DNA of 63,722 bases, the filler included, from Candidatus Rokuibacteriota bacterium (lineage in GTDB: Bacteria; JAUVQV01; DATDCY01): assembly GCA_031406795.1 (NCBI GenBank). It is 5 parts of 5 records of this genome, joined end to end, with 100 filler letters (N's around TTAATTAATTAA, not from the genome) between each part and the next. Parts side by side here need not be neighbours in the genome. Positions count along the whole stretch, not along the records: positions 27,594 to 43,381 come from JANOHV010000066.1; 4 more parts are not named here. One strand, written 5' to 3'. Below, in pieces: positions 7,386 to 60,590 of the stretch. Below the pieces are notes generated by a model that had not been told where the DNA came from, ran no database searches, and saw nothing but the letters and a program-made list of their open reading frames with translations. A program made the position numbers and the translations under genes. Every line of letters starts with the position of its first letter. Within the stretch, counting starts at the first letter, position 1.

Positions 7386-7888
7386 GTGCCGCTGATGTAG
7401 GCTTCGATCCGCCCGAGGCGCTCCTCCTGGTCCGCGAGCAGGGCCTTCACGAGGTCGCCGATGGAGACCATCCCGACCAGCAGTCCCTCGTCGACCACCG
7501 GCAGGTGCCGCAGGAAGCGTTCGGTCATCAGCGCCAGGCACTCGCCGACGGTCGTCGTGGTGGTCACGGTCACCGGCGGCGTCCCCATGATCTCCGCGAC
7601 GGTAGTCTCGTGGGAGTTCTTGCCGATCAGGATCACTTTGCGGGCGTAGTCACGTTCGCTGACGACCCCGACCACCCGCCCGCCCTCCATGACGATCAGG
7701 GCGCCGATGTTCCGTCTGGCCATCTCGCTGAGCGCGTCGTACACCGAACTCTTGGGCTCGATCGTGGAGACCTCGCGGGAGGCCTTTTGCTGGAGCACGA
7801 CTCGGATCGGGGTTACCCCCTTACCGGATTTCGGGAGGATCTCCGCGATATTGTCGAAATGCCCATTCTGCTTCCCTGCCTGTCCCAT
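7373..7888 (-). CDS. CBS-domain protein
   Basis: IGALIV..GVVSERDY and RHLPVVD..GMVSIGDLVK CBS pair. Confidence 0.85.
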   Translation of the reverse strand: MGQAGKQNGHFDNIAEILPKSGKGVTPIRVVLQQKASREVSTIEPKSSVYDALSEMARRNIGALIVMEGGRVVGVVSERDYARKVILIGKNSHETTVAEIMGTPPVTVTTTTTVGECLALMTERFLRHLPVVDEGLLVGMVSIGDLVKALLADQEERLGRIEAYISGTYPA

Positions 7889-27493: not shown

Positions 27494-27593
27494 NNNNNNN
27501 NNNNNNNNNNNNNNNNNNNNNNNNNNNNNNNNNNNNNTTAATTAATTAANNNNNNNNNNNNNNNNNNNNNNNNNNNNNNNNNNNNNNNNNNNN
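27494..27593. other. Artificial contig linker
   Basis: N-run-TTAATTAATTAA-N-run (six-frame stop spacer). Confidence 0.98.
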
Positions 27594-28764: not shown

Positions 28765-31023
28765 TCAATTCCCTCCGAAGAGCACGGGCGACTTGGCCGT
28801 CGATCGGTAGCGGCCAATCACCTCGCGCACCTCGTCGAGTCCCGCTCGGCCCGCCCCGCCCTTGATAACCGACTGGATCGATGCCTGCCTCGCGACGAAA
28901 TCAATCTCCTCAACGTGCATCGGCCAGCGCTCGACAAGCGTGACGAGTTCATCTTCGCGGATCCCATCGTTCCCCAGGCGCTCCTCCCAGCGACGAATTT
29001 GCACGTGCTCCGGCGGGTGCTCGAGCTTGAAGTGCAGGTTGAATTCGACGGGAAGCGGCTGCGGCTTGAGGGGATGCGTCACCATGCAGAAGAGCCCGGT
29101 GTGCGTGCGCAGTCTGGCTTTCAGGTCGTCGAGTTCAAAGTTCTTTTTGCCGTCGGATTCACCTTCGAGAAAGCGCCCGAGGTCGCCGCTGAAATCCATG
29201 AGCAGGGTCATGGCGTTCGCGCCGAGCGTCCTGGAGAACGCGTACTCCATCGGGGAGAGCTTCCGCTGTGTCAGCGGGTCAATCAGCCGGTCCGCCTCGG
29301 TTGACGACTGGAGCCGAGCGTAGATGAACGAGCGCACCTCGAGGCCGCACTCCCGTGCCAAAGCCTTTGCCGCAAGTTGTCCGGTGCCGAAGAACGGGGT
29401 GCTGATCAGAACGGTGAGGCCGAATCCTTCCCCCTTGAGTTGCTTCCAGGCGCGCGCTGCGCCCTGGAGGCCGTCCCGCTCCCGGTTACGAAGAAATAGA
29501 TCCGCGATGGTTCCTTGCGGTGCCGCGTATCGTTCGCAGATTCTCTCTTCGTCCGACGGCACGGGTTGCTGCAGGTCGACCGCCCGCACGAGTTGCTCCC
29601 GCGTAACACAGATTTTCCCATCCTCCCGCCTTGGCGACCGCGTCATCGCGAGCAGCATGCAGTTCTTGATCAGGCCGCCGGAGAGCTGGTAGCGGTCGGC
29701 GATCTTCGCGAGGTCGAGATCCGGGGCCAGTTCGAGCCTCTCAGGGAGAAGCGACTGCCACATGCGCAGCCGCGTGTCTGCATCCGGGATCGGGAATGCG
29801 ACCTTCATCGCGAAGCGCCGCTCCATCGCCGGGTCCAGGTCGACGGGCTTGTTGGTGGCCATGATGACGACGCATCGTGACTTCTCCAGCTCAATCAGCA
29901 GCGCCCTCCCCAGTCGCGAGTCGTTCGTGAACAGGTCGTCGCACTCGTCGAAGAGCACGATACCGCCCAGGGACTCCGCCTCGCGGAAGACCCTTGCCAG
30001 GACATCCTCCGGGTTGCCCCACTTGTCGAAGACGCTCACGGCGAGAGAGACGATCCGCCGGTCGAAGCGCAAGGCGAGCGCGCGAGCCATCATCGTCTTG
30101 CCGGTCCCCGGCGGCCCGTGGAAGAGCAGCGCCAGCCCGGTGCCGTAGCCGAAGAAGTCGTCCAGCTCGACGAGCCGCCCTGCGGCGCGATCCTCGAGAA
30201 AATTGCCAACGCAGGCGGCAACCTCCTCTTTCAGCCCATCCGGCAGGACGACCTGATCAAGGCTCACGGAACTGCGCTCCCACCGGATGAACCGCATCGA
30301 CGAACGATAGAGGTACCGGTCCCCGAGGATCTGGCGCACGAACCGCTCCTGCAATCTGATCTTCGTCCCCAGCAGATTCGTCGACTCCCCCACCCCGTCG
30401 ATCTGGAGGATCTCCTCCCCGATCAACGGCCTTTCCGTGCTGAAGTGGCGACGCGCCTCGACTTGTTCAAGGAAATCACGGCAGGCGAGCGACAGGATCG
30501 TCCCGATCAGCATGCCGTTGTGCAGGTCGTTCGTGTGCACGCCGACCTGCTCTGGCTCGAGGCGGCACCGCCTGAACGTCTCCATGAACCGCGGCGACGT
30601 GAACTGCATGAGCAGAAGCAGGAGCACCGCGCGCTCGACGGGACCGAGCCGCCGTTGTTGGCAAAATGCCTGAAAGAGCAGGTCGACGCCGTCCCGCTCT
30701 GAAGCCGCTTCCCGCAGGCGGTTCACGGCGGCCGTTTCCTCGAGCAGGACCTGCACACGTGCGACATCATTTCCGGCCGCCAGGAACGGAAAGAGCGCAC
30801 GAAATTCCGGCGACGACTCGTGACCGCCCGCAACCTCCCGCGGCAGATTCCGCAAATACCCGACGGCGAGCATCAGCGTGGCCTCTCGTTCCAGCGCCTC
30901 AAGGTGGTCGAGATTGTCGCGGAATGGTGCGTTTGACTCGCTACCCACCCACTCCAGATGTCCGAGCACGCCTTCGTCCTCGACACCTACTGCAACCCGC
31001 TGTTGCGCTGGCGCGGCGCTCAT
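28765..31023 (-). CDS. Tandem AAA+ ATPase (one intact, one degenerate module)
   Basis: GPPGTGKT, LFDECD, IMATN, AMERRF; second module lacks Walker A Lys; ATGA overlap with clpP stop. Confidence 0.85.
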   Translation of the reverse strand: MSAAPAQQRVAVGVEDEGVLGHLEWVGSESNAPFRDNLDHLEALEREATLMLAVGYLRNLPREVAGGHESSPEFRALFPFLAAGNDVARVQVLLEETAAVNRLREAASERDGVDLLFQAFCQQRRLGPVERAVLLLLLMQFTSPRFMETFRRCRLEPEQVGVHTNDLHNGMLIGTILSLACRDFLEQVEARRHFSTERPLIGEEILQIDGVGESTNLLGTKIRLQERFVRQILGDRYLYRSSMRFIRWERSSVSLDQVVLPDGLKEEVAACVGNFLEDRAAGRLVELDDFFGYGTGLALLFHGPPGTGKTMMARALALRFDRRIVSLAVSVFDKWGNPEDVLARVFREAESLGGIVLFDECDDLFTNDSRLGRALLIELEKSRCVVIMATNKPVDLDPAMERRFAMKVAFPIPDADTRLRMWQSLLPERLELAPDLDLAKIADRYQLSGGLIKNCMLLAMTRSPRREDGKICVTREQLVRAVDLQQPVPSDEERICERYAAPQGTIADLFLRNRERDGLQGAARAWKQLKGEGFGLTVLISTPFFGTGQLAAKALARECGLEVRSFIYARLQSSTEADRLIDPLTQRKLSPMEYAFSRTLGANAMTLLMDFSGDLGRFLEGESDGKKNFELDDLKARLRTHTGLFCMVTHPLKPQPLPVEFNLHFKLEHPPEHVQIRRWEERLGNDGIREDELVTLVERWPMHVEEIDFVARQASIQSVIKGGAGRAGLDEVREVIGRYRSTAKSPVLFGGN

Positions 31024-31598
31024 GCCCCACCCCGCTTCCGCACCGGCTCAACGCGGTCCGCGATGCCATGCTGGATCGCCTCCTCGGGCGTCAGCCAGGT
31101 GTCCACGTCGCGCAGCAGATACTTCTCCAGTTCGGCCTTGTCCTTGATGTTCGAGTACGCCAGGTAGTGCTGCAGGATGCGCTCGTGCTCCATATCCTCC
31201 GCCTTGCGGCCGGCAATCAACTGGCTGTGACTGCCGACGCTGAACGCCGAGAAACGGTGCGACAGGATCGAGGTGCGCGGCGTGATCACCCGACGGCCTT
31301 TCTCGCCGGTCATGAAGACCAGCAGCGCCATCGACGCAATCATTCCGATGCCGGTGGTGTATATCGGGATCCGCGACCACTCCATGATGTCGATGATCGA
31401 AAACCCCGCCGGGCAGGAACCGCCCGGGGAGTTGATCACCATCTGGATCTGGTTGACCTCCGCCTTGATGTTGTACTCGATGATCTCCTTGCAGACACTC
31501 TCCGCCATCCCGCCGTCGATCGCGCCGGAGATGTAGATGATCCCGAAGTCCTTCAGCCCCTGCTCTTTGCCCTTCTCCCGCTTCTCGCTCTCTGCCAT
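31020..31598 (-). CDS. clpP: ClpP-family serine protease paralog
   Basis: INSPGG, IASMA (Ser), SHRF (His), DTWLTPEEAIQHGIAD (Asp). Confidence 0.85.
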   Translation of the reverse strand: MAESEKREKGKEQGLKDFGIIYISGAIDGGMAESVCKEIIEYNIKAEVNQIQMVINSPGGSCPAGFSIIDIMEWSRIPIYTTGIGMIASMALLVFMTGEKGRRVITPRTSILSHRFSAFSVGSHSQLIAGRKAEDMEHERILQHYLAYSNIKDKAELEKYLLRDVDTWLTPEEAIQHGIADRVEPVRKRGGA

Positions 31599-31626
31599 GG
31601 CCCCTCCCTGGGTTGGTGAGTGACGC

Positions 31627-31660
31627 ATCATTCACTGGAGGGGTGACAAAACTGGACAAA
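31627..31660 (-). promoter_or_regulatory. Island promoter motif 1 (clpP-AAA)
   Basis: TGTCCAGTTTTGTCAC-N10-AATGAT. Confidence 0.65.
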
Positions 31661-31705
31661 GAAAGATCACCTGGATCATCGGCGATCCCGGGATCGGAAA
31701 CGGCC

Positions 31706-31800
31706 TTAGTCCTCGGCCCGTGCAAAGAAAGCAGACAGCCTGCGGTTCATTTCTGCCTTCATCTGCCGGATCGTCCCCTCCCTGGTTTGGTTCCTGGCAA
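31706..31800 (-). pseudogene. Deleted relic of the 34768..35370 gene
   Basis: Leader CCAAACCAGGGGAGG fused to GTIRQMKAEMNRRL.. C-terminus. Confidence 0.8.
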
Positions 31801-31801
31801 C

Positions 31802-31835
31802 CAGATACCGCGGAGGTGTGACAGATTTGGACAAA
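31802..31835 (-). promoter_or_regulatory. Island promoter motif 2
   Basis: TGTCCAAATCTGTCAC-N10-TATCTG. Confidence 0.65.
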
Positions 31836-31869
31836 GTTAGGCCATGGTTCGCGGCAAAATTTGCATTCA

Positions 31870-31915: not shown

Positions 31916-32146
31916 ATGGTTCAGACGGTATCTAAATCCAAATTCAAGCCCCGTGCGCTGGAGTATTTCCGGAAGATCCAGGAAACCGGCGAGGAACTCG
32001 TCCTTACCGACCATGGCAAGCCGGTGTTGAAGATCACCGCCTTCAAGCCCGACCCCGCCGCATCGCTGAAATCGCTCAGGAACACCGTGGTGAAGTTCAC
32101 AGATCCCCTGCGGCCGACCGGTGAAGACTGGGATGCGTTGAAATGA
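31916..32146 (+). CDS. Phd/YefM-family antitoxin
   Basis: VSKSKFKPRALEYFR..GEELVLTDHGKPV. Confidence 0.85.
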   Translation: MVQTVSKSKFKPRALEYFRKIQETGEELVLTDHGKPVLKITAFKPDPAASLKSLRNTVVKFTDPLRPTGEDWDALK

Positions 32147-32538
32147 TCGTTCTGGATACGCACGTCTGGCTCTGGTGGGTCAGCAACCCGGAGCTTCTCT
32201 CCGCCGCGGCGCGGAAGACGATCGACCACGAGATGGTGGACGGAGAGATCGGTATTTCGTCCATCAGCGCCTGGGAAGTTGCGATCCTGGTGAAGAAGGG
32301 GCGTCTCGACCTCACGATGTCCGCCGGGGATTGGATCGCACGGTCCGAGGCGCTCCCCTTCCTCCGGTTCATCCCCGTGGATAACCGGATCGCCCTCAAG
32401 TCCGCGAACCTCCCCGGCCAGCTGCACGACGACCCCGCCGATCGCATCATCATCGCGACGACGATCACGCTCGGCGGCATTCTGGTCACGAAGGACGATA
32501 AGATCAGGAAATACCCTCACGTGCGTACGACCTGGTAG
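32143..32538 (+). CDS. PIN-domain (VapC) toxin
   Basis: IVLDTHVWLW, SAWEV, HDDPADRIIIATT, LVTKD. Confidence 0.9.
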   Translation: MIVLDTHVWLWWVSNPELLSAAARKTIDHEMVDGEIGISSISAWEVAILVKKGRLDLTMSAGDWIARSEALPFLRFIPVDNRIALKSANLPGQLHDDPADRIIIATTITLGGILVTKDDKIRKYPHVRTTW

Positions 32539-32609
32539 CTGCAGGTAGCTGATACCTGAGTTGGATGATACGTCCAGACACAACCGGCAAGAACAAATGG
32601 TCGTGATAG

Positions 32610-32641
32610 TGTCCGGAATTGTCACGACCTGGAATTACCTT
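32610..32641 (+). promoter_or_regulatory. Island promoter motif 3
   Basis: TGTCCGGAATTGTCAC-N10-TACCTT. Confidence 0.7.
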
Positions 32642-32754: not shown

Positions 32755-33813
32755 ATGCTATACCAACTCGACCTCACCAGCGCAGCCGCAAGCAAAAAGG
32801 TCAAGCTAGAGCAACCTGCAGACTTGGGAATCCTTGAGAAGTATGTCGAGGATTTCTTTGCCACGCACATCCACGAGTTGATTCCCGAGGATCAGCTCAT
32901 GATAATCGCTCAAGAACGCAGCAGACAGGAAGAAGCCGACCTGCTTGCTCTCGACCGTAAAGGCGTGCTTTTCATTTTCGAACTCAAGCGATGGCAATCC
33001 AATCCAGAGAATCTCCTTCAGGTTATGCGATATGGACAGATCTTTGGCCGTTATAGCTATGAGGACCTTCAGGACCTGGCGCAGCGTCATAATAGACTGG
33101 AAGGCAGTTTGGCCAAAAAACACCGGGAGTATTTTGAATTAGACGAAGTTTTGCCGCAAACAGCATTCAATGCTGACCAAGTCTTTGTCGTAGTCACAAA
33201 CGGCGTCGACAAGGATACCTTAGGGGCGATTCAGTATTGGAAGAAGAAGAACGTCCGTATCGACTTCCTCACGTACAAGCTCTATTCCCTGGCTGGGAAA
33301 CCTCATTTGTACTACGACACCTATAACCCTGAGTTTGATGTCATCCAGGAGACAAATCCTGGCGTCTGCGTCGTCAATACGAACGTGAGTTATATGGAAG
33401 ATGCATGGCGGGATATGATGACTGCGCAGAAGGCGGCAGCCTATTACGACCGAAAGTATGCCGTTACCGGCATTCAGAAGGGCTTTACGGTGTATCTTTA
33501 TCACACGGGCGTCGGGGTCATAGCCAAAGGGAAGGCCAAAGGCCCCTATCGCAAAACAGATTTCGATGGCGACAAGGACGCTGAGTATTTCGTCCCGCTT
33601 ACTCTCGATTGGGCACTGAGCGATCCAGATAATTGGAAATACGCCATCACCGCGCGCGAAATCAACAAGAGAATGAATAGCGGTTACCGATTCAGGCAAA
33701 CTGTTTTCGGCATCGCGCCAGAAATGGCTGAAGCTATTGACTCTCTTTGGGAGCAGCACCAGAAGGAACTGGAATCCGCCTCTCACTCGAAGGCCATCCT
33801 CACTGAAATCTAA
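32755..33813 (+). CDS. NucS/Mrr-like PD-(D/E)xK endonuclease with PUA/EVE-like C-terminal domain
   Basis: LEKYVED, ADLLALD..IFELKR, QVMRY; C-terminal IQKGFTVYLYHTGVGVIAKG; AT-richer than flanks. Confidence 0.65.
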   Translation: MLYQLDLTSAAASKKVKLEQPADLGILEKYVEDFFATHIHELIPEDQLMIIAQERSRQEEADLLALDRKGVLFIFELKRWQSNPENLLQVMRYGQIFGRYSYEDLQDLAQRHNRLEGSLAKKHREYFELDEVLPQTAFNADQVFVVVTNGVDKDTLGAIQYWKKKNVRIDFLTYKLYSLAGKPHLYYDTYNPEFDVIQETNPGVCVVNTNVSYMEDAWRDMMTAQKAAAYYDRKYAVTGIQKGFTVYLYHTGVGVIAKGKAKGPYRKTDFDGDKDAEYFVPLTLDWALSDPDNWKYAITAREINKRMNSGYRFRQTVFGIAPEMAEAIDSLWEQHQKELESASHSKAILTEI

Positions 33814-33863
33814 TTGCCCTGCTGATGCGAATCCCAGCAGAGCGGTGCGCTATCGAGGGCAGA

Positions 33864-34107
33864 TCACCAGGTCGTGGAAACGGGGTAGCGCGAGATCTCC
33901 GGATCGGGTATCAGAATGGTGAGACCGTGCGCCGCCGCCTGACAGACCAGCATGCGGCCGAACGGATCCCGGTGGTAGTCCGGCAGCTTCGAGAGCTGAA
34001 GCACCGCCACTCTCCGCCATCCCGCCGTCGATGGCGCCGGAGATGTAGAGGATCCCGAAGTTCTTCAGCCCCTGCTCTTTGCCCTTCTGCTTCTCGCTCT
34101 CTGCCAT
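33864..34107 (-). pseudogene. Chimeric relic: clpP 5' end (34008-34107) fused to PIN toxin 3' end (33864-34007)
   Basis: Near-identical to 31496-31598 and 38082-38226 respectively. Confidence 0.85.
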
Positions 34108-34135
34108 GGCCCCGCCCTGGGTTGTTGTGTGCCTC

Positions 34136-34169
34136 ATCATTCACCCGGGACATGACAGAATCGGACAAA
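34136..34169 (-). promoter_or_regulatory. Island promoter motif 4
   Basis: TGTCCGATTCTGTCAT-N10-AATGAT. Confidence 0.6.
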
Positions 34170-34207
34170 CGAAGATCCCGCAGCCCTTCGTTCCCGTGGC
34201 GGTGACG

Positions 34208-34759
34208 TCAGTCTTCTTCGGGGAATACAAGATACCGCGGCGGGACCATTCGAGTGAGCCAGACACCGTTTTCGGATCTACAGAACATGTGCCCATCCTT
34301 ATTCATGGCCAACGCATCGATGGCAAGAACTACCGGCTTCCCGTGACGCTTGCCGACTTCGACCGCGGTTGATTCCGACGTAGAAAGATGGACGTACTGA
34401 CGAGAACCAGGAATCAGCCCCTTGGATCGAATCGAGCGAACGAAGCGCGTGGCCGTCCCGTGGAACAGAACTGCGGGCGGATCAGCCGGTGGTAGATGCA
34501 GATCCACCTCGATGGAGTGACCCTGATTCGCCCGGATGAAGCTGCCATCACCCTTCAATGCAAATCGCTGCTTTTCGCTCGTGCGTGCCACTTCAGCGAT
34601 GAGTCCCCTTGAAAGTGATCGGCCGTGGGCAGCCGCGAGGCGCACCAAATCATCAATATTCGCCCATCCTTCGTTGTCGAGCTGCAGGCCGATGACATCC
34701 GGGCGGTGCCGCAGAACGTGGCTCAGAAACTTGCTGATCGACTTGAGACGACTTGGCAT
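34208..34759 (-). CDS. kptA: RNA 2'-phosphotransferase (Tpt1/KptA)
   Basis: SKFLSHVLRHRP, KQRF, IRANQGHS, LFHGT, RQYVHLS, SENGVWL. Confidence 0.92.
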   Translation of the reverse strand: MPSRLKSISKFLSHVLRHRPDVIGLQLDNEGWANIDDLVRLAAAHGRSLSRGLIAEVARTSEKQRFALKGDGSFIRANQGHSIEVDLHLPPADPPAVLFHGTATRFVRSIRSKGLIPGSRQYVHLSTSESTAVEVGKRHGKPVVLAIDALAMNKDGHMFCRSENGVWLTRMVPPRYLVFPEED

Positions 34760-34767
34760 TACTTTGA

Positions 34768-35370
34768 CTATTTCTGCCCTGCCTGGACGAAGTAGGCCGG
34801 CAGTCTGCGGTTCATCTCTGCTTTCATCTGCCGAATCGTCCCCACGATCGCGGTGACCGCTGACGGCTCGCGCATGTCGATCTGCCTGGCGAATTTCCAA
34901 CTCGGCAGCGGAAGGTCCGTGCGGTCGTCGATGATGAAGCACGGCGTGATGTCGCCGGCATCCTTGTAGGCGGCCGCATAGTCCCGCCACATCTCCTCCC
35001 CGACCGAGTTCCGATCGAGAATCTGGATGAAGCACCCGTAAGCAAAGATGTCCGGATCGCCATCCGCACCCAAAATGATCTCGCAGTCGGTCTCCCGGCC
35101 GCACGCCGCCAGGGCTGCAAAGAGACCGCGGTACTTCTCCTCGCCATCGAACTGGCAGAAGATCGTCCGCCGCCACGGCAACTCGGAGATCGGCAGCGGA
35201 ACCCCATTCCCGGATGGGACGGCTGGATGCGCTTCAGCGGGTCCCGCTGCTGCGAGCGTTGCCATCCCGGCGGCCGCCACCGCCAGGTTCTTGATGAACG
35301 TTCGTCTCAGCTCTGTTCCCGATTCATCCCTGCCGCCTTTTCCATCAAGATGTTTCACTCTCACTGTCAT
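34768..35370 (-). CDS. Hypothetical protein with twin-arginine-like signal
   Basis: LRRTFIKNLAVAAAGMATLAAAGPAEA; RBS GGAGGAG. Confidence 0.7.
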   Translation of the reverse strand: MTVRVKHLDGKGGRDESGTELRRTFIKNLAVAAAGMATLAAAGPAEAHPAVPSGNGVPLPISELPWRRTIFCQFDGEEKYRGLFAALAACGRETDCEIILGADGDPDIFAYGCFIQILDRNSVGEEMWRDYAAAYKDAGDITPCFIIDDRTDLPLPSWKFARQIDMREPSAVTAIVGTIRQMKAEMNRRLPAYFVQAGQK

Positions 35371-35399
35371 AGCTCCTCCCTGGTTTGGTGCCTGGCATC

Positions 35400-35433
35400 C
35401 TGATACCGCTGATGTGTGACAGATTCAGACAAA
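35400..35433 (-). promoter_or_regulatory. Island promoter motif 5
   Basis: TGTCTGAATCTGTCAC-N10-TATCAG. Confidence 0.65.
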
Positions 35434-35469
35434 GTGGAGATCACAGCGAAGCCGATGCAGGTTCCCGAT

Positions 35470-35501
35470 TGTCTAAATATGTCACAGGTCGCCGCTACCC
35501 T
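35470..35501 (+). promoter_or_regulatory. Island promoter motif 6 (ftsZ-like)
   Basis: TGTCTAAATATGTCAC-N10-TACCCT. Confidence 0.7.
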
Positions 35502-35529
35502 CCATCGCAACTCCTTGGGAGGGGAAAGC

Positions 35530-36603
35530 ATGGATAACCTTCTGGACCGAAGGAAGTTCCTTCACCGTTCACTAACATATTGTTCGGGGCTGGCTGTTCT
35601 CATGGCCATGCCGTCCTTGGCAGGGGGACGAAAGATCTCTGCCTTTGGAGAAGTTCCAGTCGCAGTCAACGAATTCGAGATTACCGGCGCAGACATACGG
35701 GTCATCGGAGTCGGTTGCGGCGGATGCATTGCCCTGAATTCGATGATCGGCACCGGGATACCTGGGGTGAAGTACATCGCCGTCAACAGAGATGAGCAGG
35801 CGCTCGGTTCTTGCCTGGCAACAAACAAGCTCAATATCGGTTCAATCGCCAACGATGCCACCAACGCCGCTACCCAGCACGAATTCGGGCGTAAGGCAGC
35901 CGAAGCTCACTCCACGGTTATCGCCAAGGCAATACATGGGACTGACCTCCTCTTCATCGTCGCTGGGCTTGGTGGAAGCACCGGGACAGGGGCTGCACCG
36001 GTAATAGCCAAGATCGCCAAGGATCAGGGCATCCTCACCGCAGGCGTCGTGACGACGCCATTTCCTTTCGAAGGCGGTCGCCGGGCGAAGCAAGCGGCAG
36101 ATAGTCTTCGTATACTTGAAGATACCGCGAATTCGACAATCGTTGTGCCCAACACGGATCTTCTCACGATGATTGACCGCAAAGCGACGCTTCTTGATGC
36201 GTTCCGAATGGCGGATGACTCATTGTGCCAGGCGGTTGCCGGCATCTCCACGCTCTACACAATACCTGGTCTTTCCGATCCTGATTTCTACGACGTTCGA
36301 GCGGTGATAAATTTAATGCGGAGCGCCAGAGTGCGCCACGGCGTCGGCCAAGGCGTGAACCGTGCTGTGGCGGCCATGCAGCAGGCCATTAACTCTCCCC
36401 TCCTTGGCGCTGAAACCGTCGAAAGCGCAGCCGGTGTGATCCTCAATATCTCGTGCGGGCCGGATATCGGCCAGAACGAGGCCTTGAACGGAATTAGGCA
36501 CATCCAAGAGTTTGTCAGGGACTTTCTTCCGATTGTGTATGGGTTCAAGATATTTCCCGAACAGGCTGGCACAGTTGTGGCAACCATTATCGCTGGCCGA
36601 TAA
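35530..36603 (+). CDS. ftsZ: Divergent FtsZ paralog with Tat-like leader and no C-terminal tail
   Basis: IRVIGVGCGG, AGLGGSTGTGAAPVIA, TTPFPFEGGRR, DAFRMAD, PGLSDPDFYDV; leader DRRKFLH. Confidence 0.85.
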   Translation: MDNLLDRRKFLHRSLTYCSGLAVLMAMPSLAGGRKISAFGEVPVAVNEFEITGADIRVIGVGCGGCIALNSMIGTGIPGVKYIAVNRDEQALGSCLATNKLNIGSIANDATNAATQHEFGRKAAEAHSTVIAKAIHGTDLLFIVAGLGGSTGTGAAPVIAKIAKDQGILTAGVVTTPFPFEGGRRAKQAADSLRILEDTANSTIVVPNTDLLTMIDRKATLLDAFRMADDSLCQAVAGISTLYTIPGLSDPDFYDVRAVINLMRSARVRHGVGQGVNRAVAAMQQAINSPLLGAETVESAAGVILNISCGPDIGQNEALNGIRHIQEFVRDFLPIVYGFKIFPEQAGTVVATIIAGR

Positions 36604-36694
36604 TGGAGCATCGAGGTGTGGCACGGCAGGAATTTATCCTTTCACCTGAGACCGCTGGGGCGGCCGTCCTCAGCAACGGATGGAGGTGCTTTGC

Positions 36695-36985
36695 GTGGCG
36701 AGGTTCGAAAACCACTGCGCCGAGAGTTCGAGGATGTTCGGCAGCCCTTTTGCCGAAGTCCATCGCTGGCTCGACGAGTTCGCCGGATCGCCCGAACACG
36801 GCATGCGCCACCGCAGGAAGCGCCACCACCTGGCGGGCATCGAGGAAGTGGCAAAGCGCTTCGGTGAAGATGCGCGCGCCGCAGCGAGGCAGCACGTGAT
36901 CACGGATCTGCAGGAAGAGGGTTGGACGGAGCGAGACCGGTTCCCGGTCGACGAGCGCGACTACGTGAAGATGGGGTTCTTTTAG
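36695..36985 (+). CDS. Small His-rich hypothetical protein (DUF6915-like)
   Basis: VHRWLDE..HRRKRHHLAGIEE..QHVITDL; GGAGG before GTG at 36695. Confidence 0.6.
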   Translation: MARFENHCAESSRMFGSPFAEVHRWLDEFAGSPEHGMRHRRKRHHLAGIEEVAKRFGEDARAAARQHVITDLQEEGWTERDRFPVDERDYVKMGFF

Positions 36986-37014
36986 AAACACGGGAAATGA
37001 CGGCCGAGGCCTCG

Positions 37015-37046
37015 TGTCAGGAAATGTCACAGGTCGGCGCTATTCT
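37015..37046 (+). promoter_or_regulatory. Island promoter motif 7 (dnaA-like)
   Basis: TGTCAGGAAATGTCAC-N10-TATTCT. Confidence 0.7.
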
Positions 37047-37074
37047 TGTCGCTCCAATTAGGGAGGGTTAGAGC

Positions 37075-37974
37075 ATGAGCTGCACCTTTGATCGGCGGAT
37101 GTTCCTGAAGAGGTTCGGGGCGCTTGGGGCCGGACTCGGCGCTTTCATTGCCGAGCCATCCCACGCGTGGAGTCGAATTACTGGCTTGGCGCAGAGTGCA
37201 CCGGACACCTGCGATACCGCGCGCATCTCAACATCGGCGGGAGGCAGTATCCGATCGTCGAATTTGATGAGGAACATGACATTCGACAGCTTCGTTCCTG
37301 GCGAGAGTAATCGACTCGCATTTGAGGCAGCAATGGCCGTTGCCGACCGCCCGGCGCCCCGCTGGAACCCGTTGGTCATCTATGGTGGAGTTGGGCTCGG
37401 CAAGACGCACCTGCTTCATGCCATTGGAAACCGCTTCCTCGAGCGCAATCCCGGTTCGGGAGTCATGTACTTCTCCTCTGAAACCTTTATTAACGATTTG
37501 ATCAACTCGATCCGCTATGATCGCATGGGCTCGTTCCGAAGCCGGTACCGGCAATTAGACCTGCTCCTCGTCGACGACATCCAGTTCATCGCGGGTAAAG
37601 AGAAGACCCAGGAGGAGTTCTTCCACACCTTCAACTCAGTCCACGAGTTGCACAAGCAACTCGTGCTCACCAGCAGCAAGATGCCGCGTAAGATCCCCGA
37701 TCTCGACGAATGCCTTCGCTCCCGGTTTCATGGCGGCCTCACCGTTTCAATCAACGCTCCTGAAAATGATCTACGGCTGGCCATCGTCCACCAAAAGGCA
37801 GAATATTGTGGCGCCAGATTTCCAGAGAATGTTAAGCGCTATATTGCGGCGCGGCCGAAAGCACAATGCATTAGGTCCTTGGAAGGGGATGTCATACGTC
37901 TAAACGCATATTCATGTCTGGACGAGAAGAAAATCGACCTGGCATATGCGCGAGAAATCCTCGAGAGAATGTAA
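37075..37974 (+). CDS. DnaA domain-III-only paralog with Tat-like leader
   Basis: TFDSFVPGESN, NPLVIYGGVGLGKTHLLHAIGN, LLVDDIQFIAGKEKTQEEFFHTFN, LRSRF, IRSLEG; no domain I or IV; leader DRRMFLK. Confidence 0.85.
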   Translation: MSCTFDRRMFLKRFGALGAGLGAFIAEPSHAWSRITGLAQSAPDTCDTARISTSAGGSIRSSNLMRNMTFDSFVPGESNRLAFEAAMAVADRPAPRWNPLVIYGGVGLGKTHLLHAIGNRFLERNPGSGVMYFSSETFINDLINSIRYDRMGSFRSRYRQLDLLLVDDIQFIAGKEKTQEEFFHTFNSVHELHKQLVLTSSKMPRKIPDLDECLRSRFHGGLTVSINAPENDLRLAIVHQKAEYCGARFPENVKRYIAARPKAQCIRSLEGDVIRLNAYSCLDEKKIDLAYAREILERM

Positions 37975-38081
37975 CACCCGGCGGGTCACGAACCCGAGGG
38001 GAGGAGCAAAGAAAATGCTTTATCAACTCGACCCACAGTTGACGCGAATCCCCAGCAGGACGGAACTCTATCTGGGTCAGC

Positions 38082-38468
38082 TCACCAGGCCGTGGCAACG
38101 GGGTAGCGAGAGATCTCCGGGTCGGGTGTCAGAATGGTGAGACCGTGGGCCGCCGCCTGGCAGACCAGCATGCGGTCGAACGGGTCCCGGTGGTAGTCCG
38201 GCAACTTCGAGAGCTGAAGCACCGCGGTCTCGTCGAGGGCGAGCGCCTCGATGCGGTGCCGCCGGCGCTGCTCCGGCACGAACTCATGCGGAGGCCGGGG
38301 AAGCGGCAGGCGCCCGAGCGCGTGCTTGACGATGATCTCCCAGGTGGAGACGGAACTCAGAAAGACCTCGTTCGACGCATCGGAGAACAGATCTCTCGCA
38401 ACCCCCGAGAGCGCCGCATCCCCGGAGGCGATCCAGAGGAAGGCGCAGGTGTCGAGCAGCAGCCTCAC
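38082..38468 (-). CDS. PIN-domain (VapC) toxin
   Basis: LLLDTCAFLW, STWEI, HRDPFDRMLVCQA. Confidence 0.9.
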   Translation of the reverse strand: MRLLLDTCAFLWIASGDAALSGVARDLFSDASNEVFLSSVSTWEIIVKHALGRLPLPRPPHEFVPEQRRRHRIEALALDETAVLQLSKLPDYHRDPFDRMLVCQAAAHGLTILTPDPEISRYPVATAW

Positions 38469-38710
38469 CCGCGCTCCCCGCGGAAACCGGCGAGCGTCTC
38501 TTCCGGCAACGGCTCGAAGAAACTCGCCGGAACCGTGAAGGTGCCCGCGGCAAGCCCGATCGGGCGCCGCTTGGCGTTATGCCGGGGAAGCAGCCGTATC
38601 TCGGCGATCGGCGCATTGCGTTTGCACAGGATGATGCGCTCGTCGCCCTTCAATCGCGCAAGGTACGCGGAGAGGTGCGTCTTTGCGTCGTGCATATTTA
38701 CCTTAATCAT
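38465..38710 (-). CDS. Phd/YefM-family antitoxin
   Basis: MIKVNMHDAKTHLS..RPIGLA..FFEPLP; TTGACA-17-CACTAT promoter just upstream. Confidence 0.85.
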   Translation of the reverse strand: MIKVNMHDAKTHLSAYLARLKGDERIILCKRNAPIAEIRLLPRHNAKRRPIGLAAGTFTVPASFFEPLPEETLAGFRGERG

Positions 38711-38813
38711 GGTTCGATAGTGAACTAACAACATGGTCGTGTCAACCACCAGTGACGGGTTTCTGCCTGACGGCCCGGCAGCGTGAGATGCTTGACCGGG
38801 TATAATCCCGGCG

Positions 38814-39527
38814 ATGCTCACCCTGCAGAAACCGACAATCAGCACTCCGCGCGACTGCGAGTACCTTCCCGGCCGCCTAGCGCGCACGGAATACTTTCTC
38901 GCGCAGGAAGTGCTCCCAGCGGAACTCGACATGCTGCTGGAGTCGGGATGGCGCAAGTTCGGGTATCTCTTCTTCAGGCCGGCGTGCGGCGACTGCAGGG
39001 CGTGCGTGCCGCTGCGCATACCAGTCGCGAATTTCTTGCCCTCCAAGAGCCAGCGCCGCACCATCCGCAAGGGCGCCGCCATGGCAGTGACCTTCAAACG
39101 ACTCGAATTGAACGCGGAGGTCTTCGCTGTCTTCAGCGACCACGCGAAATCACGATTCAACCAGACCCTCGCGGCGAACGAATTCGTCCAGAGTTTTTAC
39201 CTCACCGCCTGCCCGGGTCTCCAGTCGGAGTATCGGCTCGACGATGCGTTGGTGGCGGCCGGATTCCTCGACCGATCGGAACGCGGGCTGAGCAGCGTCT
39301 ATTTCGCCTTCCGAGCCACTGCAGCCAGCTACCGCCCAGGCGTGCTCAGTGTGCTTGCCGAGATCGAATACGCCGGCAGCTGGGGACTGGAATACTGCTA
39401 CCTGGGTTATTGGATAGCCGCGAACCCGCGCATGGCCTACAAGGCCGCGTTCCGCCCGCACCAGCTGTACGACTGGGAGAGCAGGGTCTGGCGCGATGCG
39501 GCTTCCTGCTGCGGCCCGCCGGCTTGA
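38814..39527 (+). CDS. Arginyl-tRNA-protein transferase family (Ate/Bpt)
   Basis: CEYLP, GWRKFG, RPACGDCRAC, SKSQRR, LSSVY, YLGYWI, MAYK. Confidence 0.85.
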   Translation: MLTLQKPTISTPRDCEYLPGRLARTEYFLAQEVLPAELDMLLESGWRKFGYLFFRPACGDCRACVPLRIPVANFLPSKSQRRTIRKGAAMAVTFKRLELNAEVFAVFSDHAKSRFNQTLAANEFVQSFYLTACPGLQSEYRLDDALVAAGFLDRSERGLSSVYFAFRATAASYRPGVLSVLAEIEYAGSWGLEYCYLGYWIAANPRMAYKAAFRPHQLYDWESRVWRDAASCCGPPA

Positions 39528-39779: not shown

Positions 39780-40916
39780 ATGAACAAAGTCCGCTTCCTG
39801 CACACCTCCGACTGGCAGCTCGGCATGCGCCGTCACTTCCTGGGCGACGAGGCGCTCCCGCGGTACATGCAGGCGCGCGTCGACGCGGTCCGCGCACTGG
39901 CCCGCATCGCCGCCGAGGAGCGCTGCGAGCTGGTCGTCGTGGCCGGCGACGGGTTCGAGTCGAATCATGTCGACCGGCTGACGGTCGGCCGCGCTCTCGG
40001 TGCGCTCAAGGAGATCCCCTGTCCCGTCTACGTGCTCCCCGGGAACCACGACGCGTTCGACGCCGCCGGAGTCTACCGCTCCCCGGAGTTTCGCCACGGG
40101 AGGGCGGGGCACATCCACATCCTGGAGTCGAACACTCCCGTGCCAGTACGTCCCGGTCTCGAGATCGTCGGGGTGCCGTGGATGACCAAGCACCCGCGTC
40201 GCGACCTCGTGGCGGAGGCCCTGAAGAACTTGGAGCCCTTCCCGGGGGGCCACCGACTCTGCGTGGCGCACGGGATCATCGAGGGGCTCTCCCCCGACCA
40301 GACTGACCCCGCCGTCATCTCCCGGCGGCAGGCCGAGGCGGCGCTGGCCGACGGGAGGATCCACTTCCTCGCCCTCGGCGACCGCCACTCGACGACCGAA
40401 GTCGCGCCGCGCATCTGGTACTCGGGCACGCCGGAGACCACCGACTTCGGCGAACTCGATCCCGGGAACGTTCTCGTCGTCGAACTCGACGGCGACACGT
40501 GCCGAGTCGAGCGGCGCCGCACCGGCACCTGGCGCTTCCTGGACATCGCCCACGACGTGACGTCGGCCGAGGAGGTCCAGGCGCTGGCAGCGAAGCTGGA
40601 CGCTCTCCCCGACAAGGACCGCACCATCGTCAAGCTCAGCCTGCGCGGCACGCTGAATCTGCGCGCGAAGGGGATGCTCGACGATAGCCTCGAGCGATTC
40701 CGGCACCTCTTCGCCGCGGTCGAGCTCTGGGAGCGGCACACCGACATCCGCGTCCTTCCCGACGGCTTCGATTTTGGCGACCTCGGGCTCTCGGGGTTCG
40801 CGAAGCAGGCCCTGGACACCCTCTCCGTCGAAGCCGGCGGCTCCAGCCCCGACACCGGCACGGCACGCGACGCCCTCGCGCTCCTCTACCGGCTCTCCGG
40901 GGGAGGCCGCCAATGA
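39780..40916 (+). CDS. Mre11/SbcD-like metallophosphoesterase nuclease
   Basis: HTSDWQLG, AGDGFE, PGNHD, AHG, ALGDRH, YSGTPE. Confidence 0.9.
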   Translation: MNKVRFLHTSDWQLGMRRHFLGDEALPRYMQARVDAVRALARIAAEERCELVVVAGDGFESNHVDRLTVGRALGALKEIPCPVYVLPGNHDAFDAAGVYRSPEFRHGRAGHIHILESNTPVPVRPGLEIVGVPWMTKHPRRDLVAEALKNLEPFPGGHRLCVAHGIIEGLSPDQTDPAVISRRQAEAALADGRIHFLALGDRHSTTEVAPRIWYSGTPETTDFGELDPGNVLVVELDGDTCRVERRRTGTWRFLDIAHDVTSAEEVQALAAKLDALPDKDRTIVKLSLRGTLNLRAKGMLDDSLERFRHLFAAVELWERHTDIRVLPDGFDFGDLGLSGFAKQALDTLSVEAGGSSPDTGTARDALALLYRLSGGGRQ

Positions 40917-43381
40917 GAATCCTCCGGCTCCGGATCAAGGATTACCGCGGAGTCGCCGACCGCACGCTCGATTTCGATCCCGCCGGGGTCACCGTCGTTG
41001 AGGGGCCGAACGAGAGCGGGAAGTCCTCCCTCGCCGAGGCGATCGACCTGCTCTTCGAGCACCCCGACTCCAGCCGCAAGCAGGCGGTGCTGCAGACCAA
41101 GCCCGTCGACAGGGACGCGGGGCCTGAAATCGAGGCCGAGATCACCGCCGGCCCCTACCATTTCGTCTATCGGAAGCGCTTCATCCGCAAGCCGGAGACG
41201 ATCCTCGAGGTGAAGTCTCCACGAAAGGAGCACGCCACGGGCCGGGAAGCGCACGACCGCGTGCGCGCCATCCTCGCGGAGACGGTCGACGGCGACCTCT
41301 GGAAGGCGCTGCGCGTCAACCAGGGCGACCTCCTGGGCCGGGTTCCCGTCGGCAAGATCGCCTCCCTGGGTAACGCCCTGGACCGCGCCGCCGGCAAGGA
41401 GACTGCCGGGGAGCGGGAGCAGACGCTCTTCGAGGCGGTGGTGGCGGAGTACCGCAGGTATTTCACCGAGAGCGGGCTGGAAAACAAGGAGCTGCGGGCG
41501 TCCGCCGAGCGGATCGCTGAACTCGAAGACCTCGTCGCGAAGACCAGCGCCGATCTCAAGACCATGCAGCAGGACGTGGACAGGAGCGAAGCCATCGCCA
41601 TTGCGATTCCCGAGCTGAAGCGCGTGTCCGCCGAGGCGGGCGAGCTCGCCGTCCGACGCGAAGCGGAGCGCCTCGAGGTCGACAAGCGGGAGGCCGAGGT
41701 CCAGCGGCTGGAACTCGCGGAACAGAATGCCCGCATGGCCGAAACCGCCGCCGTCCAGCACGCGGCCGACCGTGAGTCGCTCGTCCGAAAGGTGGAGGAG
41801 GTACAGCAGCAGCGGCGCCGGCTCGAGGCGGAAGCCGCCACGGAGCAACCCGCGCTAGTTGATGCGAAAGCGCGATGCGAAGCTGCCACCGGGAGCCTGG
41901 CGACAGGCGAAGCGGCGGTCGGCGAGGCCGAGGCCGCGCTTGCGCTGCGCGAGCGGGACTTCGAGTACCAGCGTGCCAGGCTCGATCTCGAACAGCTCCG
42001 CGAACGGCGGGCACGGATCGAGGAGGCCCGGCAGCGCGCCGCGTCGGCCAGGGAGTTCCTCGATCGCACCCGGATCACGGACGAGATCGTGCGGCGCATC
42101 CGCGAGTGCCACCTCGACCTGGAGAAGGCCCAGGCGCTCCTGGATGCCGGCGGCCCCCGCCTGCGCGTGACGGCTCTCTCGCCCTTCGCGGCCGAGATCG
42201 ACGGGGTCCCCGAGAGCCTGGAGGAGCACCAGGTCCTCGAGCGCACCGTGCCCGGCCAGACGGTCCTGCGGATACCCGGCACGGCCGAGATCGTCGTGTC
42301 GGCGGGCACGAGCGTCGAGAACCTCCTCGCCGCGCGAGACAAGGCCGGCCGCGCGCAGGAGGAAGCGCTCGGCCGCGCCGGCGTGAGGGACATGGAGGCC
42401 GCCGAGCGCGAGAACGAGCGCCGCCGGGAGTCCGAGCGGGTGGCCGAGGCGAGCGAAGTCTCCGTCAGGGTGGACCTCCGCGACCTCACCCTGGACGCGA
42501 TGACGGAGAAGATCATCAGCCTCGCCTGGGCGGAAGACTACCCAGCCCAGCGCCCGGCATCCCCCCCACTCATGCCGGACCTCGACTCGGCGGAAGTTGC
42601 GCGCAGGGAGGCCAAGGAGACCCTCGGCCGAACCCAGGCGGACCGTGACTGCGCGCGGGAGGAAGTCCTGGCCGCCGAGAAGCGGGGCAACCACCTGGCG
42701 AGCCGCCTGCAGGAGAAGACGCTCGAACTTCGGCTCTCCGCGCTATCGGAGAAGCAGGCGACCGCCGAACTCGCTGCGACGCGGGAACAGAAGCCCGACG
42801 ATGATCTCGCGACGGCCTTGAACCTGGCCCGGGAGCGCGCACGGACCTCGGCAACCAGCCTCCAGGAGGCCAGGGCCGCGTTGAAGTCCGCGAACCCGGA
42901 GCTGGTGCGCCAGCTGGCGTCCAACGCGAAGAAGGCGGAGCAGGCGGCCGCGCAGCGCCTGCGCGCAGCCGAGGACGAGTTGCGCGACGTCGCCGCCCGC
43001 CTCGAGCTGCAAGGTGAACGCGGCCTTTTCGATGCCCTCGAGGACGCGCAGTCGCGCCTGGAGCACGCTCGACGGGACCACCGCAGCCTCACGGCGCGCG
43101 CGGCAGCGGCGCGTCTGCTCTTCGTGAGCTTTCGGGATGCGCGGGATGCATCCCGCCGCGCCTACCAGGCGCCGCTGCGAGACAAGATCGTCTCCCTGGG
43201 GCGTTTTGTCTTCGACGAAACGTTCGGGGTCGAACTCGACGAGGACCTCGCCATCGGCACACGGACCCTGCAGGGGGTGACCCTTCCCTTCGACAGCCTC
43301 AGCGTCGGTGCCCAAGAGCAGCTCTCCCTCATCGCCCGCCTCGCCTGCGCCCTCCTCGTCAGTCAGGACGACGGCGTCCCC
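40913..43381 (+). CDS. Rad50/SbcC-like coiled-coil ATPase (3'-truncated by contig end)
   Basis: GPNESGKSS Walker A, long coiled coil, LSVGAQEQL signature. Confidence 0.88.
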
Positions 43382-43481
43382 NNNNNNNNNNNNNNNNNNN
43401 NNNNNNNNNNNNNNNNNNNNNNNNNTTAATTAATTAANNNNNNNNNNNNNNNNNNNNNNNNNNNNNNNNNNNNNNNNNNNN
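43382..43481. other. Artificial contig linker
   Basis: N-run-TTAATTAATTAA-N-run. Confidence 0.98.
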
Positions 43482-48080: not shown

Positions 48081-48205
48081 CGCGCGGGTCCTCTGCAGCA
48101 TCACGGTAGGGATTCTCGTGGCGGGGCCGGACTTTGTCAAGGCGGCCCGGGCCCGGCCCCCGTCGGGCGTGGCGCAATGATATAGTTGCCCGGGAGAACC
48201 GGGCG

Positions 48206-58257: not shown

Positions 58258-58357
58258 NNNNNNNNNNNNNNNNNNNNNNNNNNNNNNNNNNNNNNNNNNN
58301 NTTAATTAATTAANNNNNNNNNNNNNNNNNNNNNNNNNNNNNNNNNNNNNNNNNNNN
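58258..58357. other. Artificial contig linker
   Basis: N-run-TTAATTAATTAA-N-run. Confidence 0.98.
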
Positions 58358-60490: not shown

Positions 60491-60590
60491 NNNNNNNNNN
60501 NNNNNNNNNNNNNNNNNNNNNNNNNNNNNNNNNNTTAATTAATTAANNNNNNNNNNNNNNNNNNNNNNNNNNNNNNNNNNNNNNNNNNNN
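60491..60590. other. Artificial contig linker
   Basis: N-run-TTAATTAATTAA-N-run. Confidence 0.98.

Follow-up and report, generated by a model that had tools for sequence, protein, structure and literature searches.

FtsZm of magnetotactic bacteria, FtsZl1/FtsZl2 and TubZ/PhuZ are the products of extra tubulin-superfamily genes, which lie outside the dcw cluster and encode no C-terminal peptide. To our knowledge, none of them carries a signal peptide, and the same holds for any other FtsZ or DnaA paralog. FtsZ mutants changed at the T7 (bottom) face and the protein MciZ act as filament cappers or interface poisons, and substrates that are exported by twin-arginine translocation (Tat) include divisome proteins with borrowed folds, such as SufI/FtsP and AmiA/AmiC. 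In the parts of three published reports on which we draw, fragments of the FtsZ filament interface inhibit growth of E. coli in a dominant-negative manner (PMC9245647), PaoABC is a Tat hitchhiker complex (PMC4273604), and inactive cell-division domains, including rare FtsZ/tubulin ones, are proposed as decoy effectors in nucleoside triphosphate (NTP)-dependent conflict systems (Kaur et al. 2020, PMC7159879). Here we describe an ftsZ-like gene (35530-36603, plus strand) in a stretch of 63,722 nucleotides from Candidatus Rokuibacteriota bacterium (assembly GCA_031406795.1; five parts joined end to end, in the following the window). Our preferred reading, to which we assign a probability of roughly 40%, is that this gene encodes a Tat-routed, non-treadmilling FtsZ core with one usable face, which would be part of a cassette for conflict or for braking the cell cycle; that the protein is exported and binds native FtsZ are predictions of this reading.

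The ATG at position 35530 opens a product of 357 amino acids (aa). It is preceded at a distance of five bases by the Shine-Dalgarno sequence GGGAGGGG, and in the alignment two full-length relatives, P0003 and P0017, begin at the same residue; therefore we take this ATG for the real start. Pfam detects a Tubulin domain (PF00091, 1.8e-32) and an FtsZ_C domain (PF12327, 1.5e-13), and the sequence search of the PDB returned 52 distinct sequences at E ≤0.001, with S. aureus FtsZ as the best match (1.1e-65, residues 54-355). By these matches the protein is a genuine FtsZ homolog. A tubulin of the TubZ/PhuZ type was ruled out by the E-values of 9.2e-4 for RepX versus 1e-65 for FtsZ and by the lack of a PHROG match. 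With the NCBIfam equivalog model for ftsZ (TIGR00065) the protein scored 256.7 bits, which is under the cut-off of 295.2. Further, its C-terminus is ...TIIAGR with neither linker nor C-terminal peptide, whereas its housekeeping relatives run on past the same point (...VIATGF) through a linker to a DLDIPTFLRRQ-type tail, adding 40-60 residues. The original prediction, made from the window sequence, had stated that the linker and the FtsA/ZipA-binding tail are missing and that the gene is not in a dcw cluster. Indeed, the protein stops at the end of the core, and the Pfam scan found no dcw-type family among the 39 larger open reading frames (ORFs) of the window. Thus, it is a member of the FtsZ family by sequence, which fails the equivalog cut-off as well as the signature-loop and tail tests of a division FtsZ, and its gene probably lies outside a dcw cluster.

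The feature that sets this protein apart is its N-terminus. Leaders of Tat substrates have a consensus of the type S/T-R-R-x-F-L-K, and residues 6-11 read D-R-R-K-F-L in all three members of the family (the window protein, P0003 and P0017). The moderately hydrophobic stretch at residues 14-33 ends, by inspection, with S-L-A, and with A-M-A-W-G in the relatives. Seventeen positions between residues 4 and 22 are invariant across the three proteins, while their overall identity is only about 51%. A contig of 159 bases, which stems from a soil run in a different study, differs from the window at 15 bases in the leader and leaves the RR region untouched; ten of these differences were itemised and amount to three synonymous and four replacement codon changes, one of which restores the A-W-G end of the relatives. 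A six-frame scan for RRxF followed by a hydrophobic stretch found exactly three adjacent ORFs in the 63.7-kb window. The cut-off of the Tat model TIGR01409 (16.7 bits) was passed by the leader of a DnaA-like neighbour (18.3 bits), by its relative P0122 (19.1 bits) and by a 200-aa protein encoded divergently upstream (21.8 bits). Residues 1-33 of the FtsZ-like protein look like a Tat signal peptide as well, and from this likeness we predict that the protein takes the Tat route.

This leader belongs to a larger unit. The regions 35470-35628 and 37015-37173, comprising the 5'-untranslated region (5'-UTR) and the leader codons of the ftsZ-like and the dnaA-like gene, respectively, can be compared without gaps over 159 bases and are 52% identical; at 7613 other offsets the identity was 25.6 +/- 3.4% and never exceeded 42%. 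No likeness remains beyond the leader, and the two leaders are homologous in register. In addition, a box of 19 bases, ATGTCACAGGTCGSCGCTA, is found window-wide only at 35479 and 37024, in both cases 51 bases upstream of the start codon, while 0.04 occurrences are expected by chance. The identity that ends with the leader and the paired box indicate that one unit of UTR and leader was joined to two unrelated cargo cores. In the metagenome locus L003, a homologous UTR sits directly upstream of a gene for a DUF6915 protein. The search for known elements in this region was negative: Rfam returned nothing but one sub-threshold chance match between 28000 and 40000, the predicted folding of the shared 5'-UTR is no more stable than that of shuffled sequences, and a scan for sigma-70 promoters and terminators revealed nothing at the shared box.

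The second line of evidence concerns the loops of the GTPase core. As a reference we used the alignment of 120 listed homologues, in which 96 columns are conserved to at least 95% among the 117 FtsZ proteins outside the family; these column counts replace the canonical strings of the original prediction, which gave a general consensus. The names of the loops, and any E. coli numbering, are those which we take to be the usual ones. The unusual motifs pointed out previously are present in the alignment, with VGCGGCIA at residues 61-68, GLGGSTGTG at residues 146-154 and SDPDFYD at residues 249-255. The window protein retains 69 of the 96 near-invariant columns, and the 27 altered ones include, besides changes in loops T1, T3, T4 and T7 (Table 1), T87R in loop T2 and two further conserved positions beyond T7, G264 and M268. 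The N-x-D-x-x-D pattern of the T7 synergy loop is thereby broken at its Asn (N250D) in the window protein. In P0003 and P0017, three of the seven T3 columns are altered, all four T7 columns are changed, including the first Asp (D252), and the Asn of T6 is also gone. Because the window protein loses T3, T1 and T4, and the relatives lose T7, it seems that in each version a single longitudinal face of the subunit has been preserved. Judging from this pattern, self-polymerisation with turnover of guanosine triphosphate (GTP) is unlikely, and a single retained face is what a filament cap would need.

A further peculiarity is the number of cysteines. The FtsZ-like proteins have 4-6 Cys each (1.1-1.7 per 100 aa), as compared to a mean of 0.97 (maximum 4; 0.25 per 100 aa) in the 117 FtsZ, and two Cys in the mature part are invariant in the family. 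Similarly, there are six Cys in the 299 aa of the DnaA-like protein (2.0 per 100 aa), while the mean is 1.64 (0.37 per 100 aa) in 118 DnaA proteins of about 450 aa. Such an enrichment would suit an oxidising compartment and is only suggestive; the idea is weakened by Cys numbers that are odd and by the variability of most positions.

The dnaA-like gene is located two genes downstream of the ftsZ-like gene. Its leader has the same length as that of the FtsZ-like protein, ends with S-H-A-W-S and is followed by a short low-complexity linker and domain III. It matches Bac_DnaA in Pfam (4.6e-63) and domain III of B. subtilis DnaA (5.9e-73). The match to TIGR00362 covers model positions 99-337 of 437 and reaches 307.5 bits, under the cut-off of 343.9. 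Both Walker motifs (A and B), the arginine of S-R-F and that of sensor II are intact in the core, as are 88 of 111 near-invariant DnaA columns. P0122, which corresponds to locus L003, shares this leader and shows 76% identity. The ftsZ-like and the dnaA-like gene are separated by the DUF6915 gene, which is adjacent to the dnaA-like gene in L003 and to the gene of the 200-aa family in L002; a literature search with the term DUF6915 found no papers. When compared to L003, the ratio of nonsynonymous to synonymous substitution rates (dN/dS) is 0.245 for the dnaA-like gene over 195 codons (core 0.166; leader 0.43 over 33 codons) and 0.146 for the DUF6915 gene. Both genes are under purifying selection.

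The 200-aa gene, divergent from the ftsZ-like gene, shows a dN/dS of 0.36. Its product has an alpha/beta fold with four well-conserved Cys (AF2 mean pLDDT 70.1), for which the Foldseek matches (TM 0.32-0.44), to uS2, a decarboxylase wing and receiver domains, are of a generic alpha/beta kind and allow no assignment. The best ESM Atlas scores (0.77-0.78) were to clusters of the Tat-signal type and are a lead only. Among the 20 members of this family, 12 have an RR leader, four are N-terminally incomplete and four show an in-frame gap without leader; these last four all come from Logan assemblies.

P0003 (357 aa) and P0017 (361 aa), the closest relatives of the FtsZ-like protein, are encoded on short contigs of Logan assemblies, carry the same leader and end at the core. 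An exhaustive HMMER search of 1.84 billion cluster representatives with a profile of the three sequences retrieved 25,977 proteins of the FtsZ type at E ≤0.001. Among the matches listed, those of P0003 and of the protein of the window alone begin at profile position 1, and the others start at position 28 at the earliest and have far lower scores. Two further proteins at most in this collection combine leader and core in such a way, and the family amounts to two clusters. When one genome of each prokaryote species was scanned with the leader alignment, 15 pattern matches were obtained, one of which passed tblastn and was rejected as a 10-residue chance match on a Bacteroidales contig. In assembled data, the gene is spanned without any difference by contigs from two sediment samples of a single study, one of 14,667 bases (34010-37397) and one of 1,770 bases (35392-37161); one of the two samples may be the source of the window itself. 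Near-identical short pieces of the gene are present in two other studies, and there are no RNA datasets among those listed as containing the gene.

The FtsZ phylogeny was calculated with 34 of the 120 listed homologues. In this tree the three proteins with the leader make up a single clade (SH-aLRT 99), and this clade is joined with support 99 to the nine closest FtsZ, among them one that NCBI assigns to Candidatus Methylomirabilia bacterium. The branches of this clade measure 0.66-1.98 substitutions per site and are about ten times longer than those of the neighbouring FtsZ (0.02-0.17). The comparison with housekeeping FtsZ thus places the protein as a paralog on a long branch within a clade of normal FtsZ. 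For the DnaA tree 28 rows were used, and P0122 was trimmed to its first 200 residues, its tail being aberrant. The two DnaA-like proteins nest, on a long stem, in the nearest DnaA set (support 96). Since each paralog groups with its nearest housekeeping set, we conclude from the trees that both the FtsZ-like and the DnaA-like protein are fast-evolving derivatives of housekeeping genes of a Methylomirabilia-like lineage.

The gene content around the ftsZ-like gene is variable. We compared seven metagenome loci with the 200-aa family, each of 1.2-3.8 kb. L003 contains the dnaA-like and the DUF6915 gene, and when it is aligned to the window, position 36682 is followed directly by 35525, which means that exactly the ftsZ-like ORF is missing. 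In L002, the DUF6915 gene is directly divergent from the 200-aa gene and there is no ftsZ-like gene. In L005 the island genes recur in a different arrangement, with neither an ftsZ-like nor a dnaA-like gene, and in L006 the 200-aa gene is followed by ClpP-like and AAA+ genes. P0017 and the 200-aa family member P0396 (2381-base contigs) probably share one contig. The clean absence of the gene from related cassettes is the reason why we consider it accessory; by this comparison of loci it is an optional cargo of a variable cassette. Together with the sub-cut-off equivalog score, the long branch and the missing tail, this absence upholds the diverged paralog of the original prediction. We take the ftsZ-like gene to be a real, selected and accessory gene and very probably not the division ftsZ of the cell.

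Two of the loci provide a weak lead to a third fragment of an essential protein in the same setting. A domain resembling the finger domain of DNA polymerase III alpha (DnaE) was detected by Pfam in L003 with 26.9 bits (cut-off 22) and in L004 with 19.1 bits. In L003 (1338-2447, plus strand) it shares one reading frame with the domain of the 200-aa family and takes the place of the Tat leader, and in L004 (1114-1815, minus strand) it is a separate divergent gene. A profile of the two sequences had only two PDB matches at E ≤1, both to Pol III alpha with E 0.19, and the PDB search with a single sequence yielded no DnaE match.

All three genes with Tat-type leaders belong to a rearranged island of low GC content, which also contains toxin-antitoxin and defence-type genes (Table 1). 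The GC content is 0.55-0.59 in the island and 0.61-0.72 in its flanks. Six families of direct repeats (31500-31837, 33833-34177, 34781-34843, 35375-35435 and 38000-38225) indicate that pieces of the island were duplicated and reshuffled, and left behind are fragments of the PIN gene (3' end), the ClpP-like gene (5' end), the PDC-S11-like gene (start) and the 200-aa gene (3' end). The ClpP paralog gene overlaps the start of the IetA-like ATPase gene by four bases, and this pair is also adjacent in L006. Both PIN genes of the window and the gene for the PDC-S11-like protein, which has a weak N-terminal match of the NucS/PD-(D/E)xK type, are also present in L005. The KptA/Tpt1 gene is an insertion, which separates the 200-aa gene from a fragment of a ClpP-like gene. 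Directly flanking the island is a gene for an arginyl/leucyl-tRNA-protein transferase with ATE_N and ATE_C domains (38814-39527, plus strand), an N-degron enzyme near the ClpP paralog. The ORFs 31048-31725 and 31921-32625, both on the minus strand, were rejected as spurious, the real genes being those for the ClpP-like and the first PIN protein.

Elsewhere in the window we noted an ORF of 1919 aa (48134-53893, plus strand) with UvrA-type domains and several ABC/P-loop matches, which is about twice as long as usual UvrA, and a second low-GC stretch (0.56) with a fragment of a group II intron reverse transcriptase/maturase (59677-60468, minus strand) and an IS110-family transposase (61765-62889, plus strand). 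The runs of N are four pairs of 44 bases with 12 bases between them, at 27494-27593, 43382-43481, 58258-58357 and 60491-60590.

Table 1. Features of the ftsZ-like locus, its neighbours and the surrounding island, with positions in the window.
Feature	Position	Strand	Basis
Frame of the ftsZ-like ORF	35416-36603	+	ORF listing
5'-UTR of the ftsZ-like gene: box ATGTCACAGGTCGCCGCTA (35479-35497), Shine-Dalgarno GGGAGGGG (35517-35524)	35470-35529	+	Sequence reading
Leader (codons 1-33) resembling a twin-arginine signal peptide: DRRKFL, hydrophobic stretch, SLA-GG	35530-35628	+	Family alignment, inspection
Short linker and FtsZ globular core (GTPase and FtsZ_C domains), stop codon at core end	35629-36603	+	Pfam, PDB search, alignment
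T1 loop GVGCGGCIA, residues 60-68: G63C, N67I, family-invariant Cys at 66	35707-35733	+	Alignment, column count, Cys count
T3 loop, residues 108-117: 6 of 7 near-invariant columns altered	35851-35880	+	Column count, alignment
T4 signature GLGGSTGTG, residues 146-154: G150S	35965-35991	+	Alignment, column count
T7 loop SDPDFYD, residues 249-255: N250D, A254Y, both Asp kept; 2 of 4 columns altered	36274-36294	+	Alignment, column count
DUF6915 gene, 101 aa, between the two leader-bearing genes	36680-36985	+	Pfam PF21866, 36.1 bits (cut-off 27)
5'-UTR of the dnaA-like gene, homologous to 35470-35529	37015-37074	+	Repeat search (repeat D7), ungapped comparison, box search
dnaA-like gene: DnaA AAA+ (domain III) core, 299 aa, no domains I, II and IV; leader codons 1-33 at 37075-37173	37075-37974	+	Pfam, TIGR00362, TIGR01409
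200-aa gene: Tat signal and Cys-bearing alpha/beta domain, divergent, 5' of the ftsZ-like gene	34768-35370	-	TIGR01409 (21.8 bits), family of 20, AF2 model
IetA-like AAA+ ATPase, 752 aa, winged-helix and AAA+	28765-31023	-	PADLOC
ClpP paralog	31020-31631	-	PF00574, 3.6e-30
PIN gene	32143-32538	+	Pfam
PDC-S11-like protein (PADLOC candidate defence family)	32755-33813	+	1.1e-21
KptA/Tpt1 RNA 2'-phosphotransferase gene	34208-34756	-	Pfam, PHROG 5470 (3.5e-65)
PIN gene and overlapping Phd/YefM-like antitoxin gene	38082-38468; 38465-38713	-	Phd/YefM-like match below Pfam cut-off
AAA_15-type ATPase	40913-43429		Pfam, PADLOC

Absent from the original prediction are the twin-arginine leader, the neighbouring DnaA core that carries this leader module too, and the island context, and they alter the picture. 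According to our preferred reading, the FtsZ-like protein would fold in the cytoplasm and be handed to the Tat translocase, which would be the sole export route for a folded protein, nucleotide- or partner-bound ones included. The conserved modular RR leader suggests that the proteins are meant for this route. With degenerate top-face loops (T1, T3 and T4) and a T7 face retaining both Asp, the protein would neither build filaments nor treadmill, and at most it would bind, in the manner of a cap, to a native FtsZ subunit or filament at one end. The tethering domains are pruned in both proteins (the tail of FtsZ; domains I, II and IV of DnaA), the degeneration is one-faced and the arginine finger of the DnaA core is intact, which argues that the cores were kept for homotypic contact and not for the work they usually do. 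Thus, the cassette might supply exportable, one-faced copies of a division and a replication-initiation protein, and among the defence and toxin-antitoxin genes it would most likely act as a conflict or cell-cycle-brake module.

Several observations weigh against this reading. The leader of the FtsZ-like protein itself is not matched by TIGR01409, P0003 reaches 12.9 bits with this model, and none of six leaders comes near the cut-off of the Pfam TAT_signal model. The 200-aa partner can dispense with its leader, since four of the 20 family members are without it and at one locus it is replaced by a fusion to a cytoplasmic-type N-terminal domain. The intact motifs of the DnaA-like core fit a cytoplasmic, ATP-using job better than a periplasmic one, and we know of no role for an FtsZ or DnaA core outside the cytoplasm, where GTP and ATP are not supplied. 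Finally, the FtsZ-like protein is matched by none of the defence families of PADLOC-DB 2.0 (E ≤0.01) and by no phage family of the PHROGs.

In a more specific form of our preferred reading, which is speculative and quite doubtful, the portable 5'-UTR and leader on one-faced cores would constitute a brake of the Tat hitchhiker type. Each core would bind its native counterpart at the subunit interface and the pair would be exported; or else the cores would be poisons that are harmless only as long as export driven by the proton-motive force goes on. Either way, division and replication initiation would halt together upon induction of the cassette or when the membrane is compromised.

The alternative that survives best, itself an unlikely one, is a capper or poison that stays in the cytoplasm and blocks the assembly of the Z-ring. 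The leader would then be vestigial, or a tag for docking to the membrane or TatBC, or a gate, with export keeping the poison low and failure of Tat or of the proton-motive force causing its build-up. The absence of a tail for FtsA/ZipA, and hydrolysis and contact loops which are degenerate on one face only, agree with such a function, as does the dominant-negative behaviour of FtsZ interface fragments in E. coli in the relevant part of that report (PMC9245647). The retained ATPase and arginine-finger motifs of the partner DnaA core and the toxin-antitoxin genes in the island also speak for it. However, a vestigial leader would not remain invariant over about 50% divergence, nor would it be a module on two cargoes. 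The positive-inside rule governs the orientation of signal anchors, and according to this rule RRK on the N-side of a signal anchor would place the core outside the cytoplasm. A polymer-capping or dominant-negative FtsZ had been suggested in the original prediction; the diverged paralog stands, while a purely cytoplasmic capper leaves the conserved Tat-type signal unexplained.

Less likely again is a periplasmic job unrelated to native FtsZ. The exported core, perhaps nucleotide-locked and stabilised by disulfides, would work in the envelope together with the exported DnaA core, either as a scaffold or by barring the entry of DNA or proteins. This would make direct sense of the twin-arginine leaders, of the Cys enrichment of both cores and of the two invariant Cys in the mature FtsZ-like part, and there is a precedent in the HXS system, for which a periplasmic anti-phage effector blocking DNA entry is described in the part of the source used here (PMC13128918). 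On the other hand, nucleotides are not supplied outside the cytoplasm, the Cys are odd in number with positions mostly not conserved, and the intact catalytic motifs of the DnaA core would be left unexplained. We also saw no addition that could bind peptidoglycan, membrane or DNA.

We regard it as improbable, even more so than the periplasmic role, that inactive FtsZ and DnaA cores (and the DnaE fragment in related loci) are decoys, which bind invader proteins aimed at the real ones and either soak them up or report the attack to the AAA+ and ClpP-like genes. Three different essential-protein fragments across variants of one cassette, and the ClpP paralog and IetA-like AAA+ gene adjoining it, fit this idea, and inactive division-domain decoys were already proposed for conflict systems in the pertinent part of one study (PMC7159879). 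Yet the surfaces bound by invaders should persist, whereas the FtsZ-like protein evolves about ten times faster than FtsZ. In addition, the Tat leader would remain unexplained, the DnaE match is weak, and no PADLOC defence model matches.

A decaying duplicate without function, or an assembly artefact, is very unlikely. The long branches, the lost invariant glycines, the rearranged island with gene fragments and the extreme rarity may seem to point in this direction; neutral decay had been named in the original prediction as an outcome that would speak against it. What we found instead are three intact full-length ORFs with about 50% divergence, an invariant leader and a strong ribosome-binding site, and the retention of 69 of the 96 conserved columns at an overall identity of about 52% indicates that the gene is selected and not decaying; against an artefact, two samples yielded contigs without any difference and two other studies contain pieces of the gene. 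Finally, it is hardly credible that this is an unusual division FtsZ and the only one of the organism, given its clean absence from related cassettes, its position in a low-GC island away from any dcw genes, its signal peptide, missing tail and degenerate GTP loops, and the existence of normal FtsZ with 53-55% identity in the nearest lineage.

The locus is of importance for several reasons. FtsZ and DnaA are textbook cytoplasmic, nucleotide-driven machines, and here both are cut down to their self-association cores, provided with one shared export-type leader and placed near each other in an accessory island. This suggests a natural interference with the cell cycle, or a reuse of the folds outside the cytoplasm, which is undescribed in the literature searched. 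If export is true, the range of known Tat cargo is widened, and if the cores bind their native counterparts, they are a natural example of the dominant-negative fragment principle and possibly part of a new conflict or dormancy module. The extreme rarity limits the general importance, unless the principle recurs with other cargo.

When compared to known systems, the FtsZ-like protein is closest to the housekeeping Methylomirabilia-like FtsZ (P0002-P0026), with which it shares the fold, both domains and 53-55% core identity. It differs from them by a Tat-type leader in place of the short N-terminus, the absence of linker and C-terminal peptide, the 27 altered columns and the location in an accessory island. 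As in the case of FtsZm, FtsZl1/FtsZl2 and TubZ/PhuZ, the gene is probably an extra one outside the dcw cluster, and it lacks the C-terminal peptide; a literature search for a signal-bearing FtsZ or DnaA paralog, performed at the level of titles and abstracts, found none. The one usable face and the missing tail resemble FtsZ cappers and interface poisons such as the fragments in the part of the work cited above (PMC9245647), provided that native FtsZ is met, but here we deal with a natural full-core paralog with an export-type leader. With the Tat substrates that are exported in a folded or partner-bound state, exemplified by PaoABC in the section of the source concerned (PMC4273604), it has in common an RR leader on a protein that would fold, perhaps with ligand bound, before export. 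In contrast to the known substrates, the cargo is a cytoskeletal GTPase core, its export is predicted and its leader scores under the cut-off of the Tat model. The degenerate division-protein domain in a conflict-type neighbourhood is reminiscent of the systems of Kaur et al., as far as presented in the part of that paper considered (PMC7159879); however, no vWA-MoxR or other core is seen here, and the gene stands alone and has a signal peptide. Last but not least, the DnaA-like protein is similar to Hda and other proteins consisting of DnaA domain III only, in that it has an AAA+ core without the DNA-binding domain IV, but it is far nearer to DnaA (307.5 bits, versus 102.3 bits with the Hda model, cut-off 194.8) and, in contrast to Hda, carries a Tat leader.

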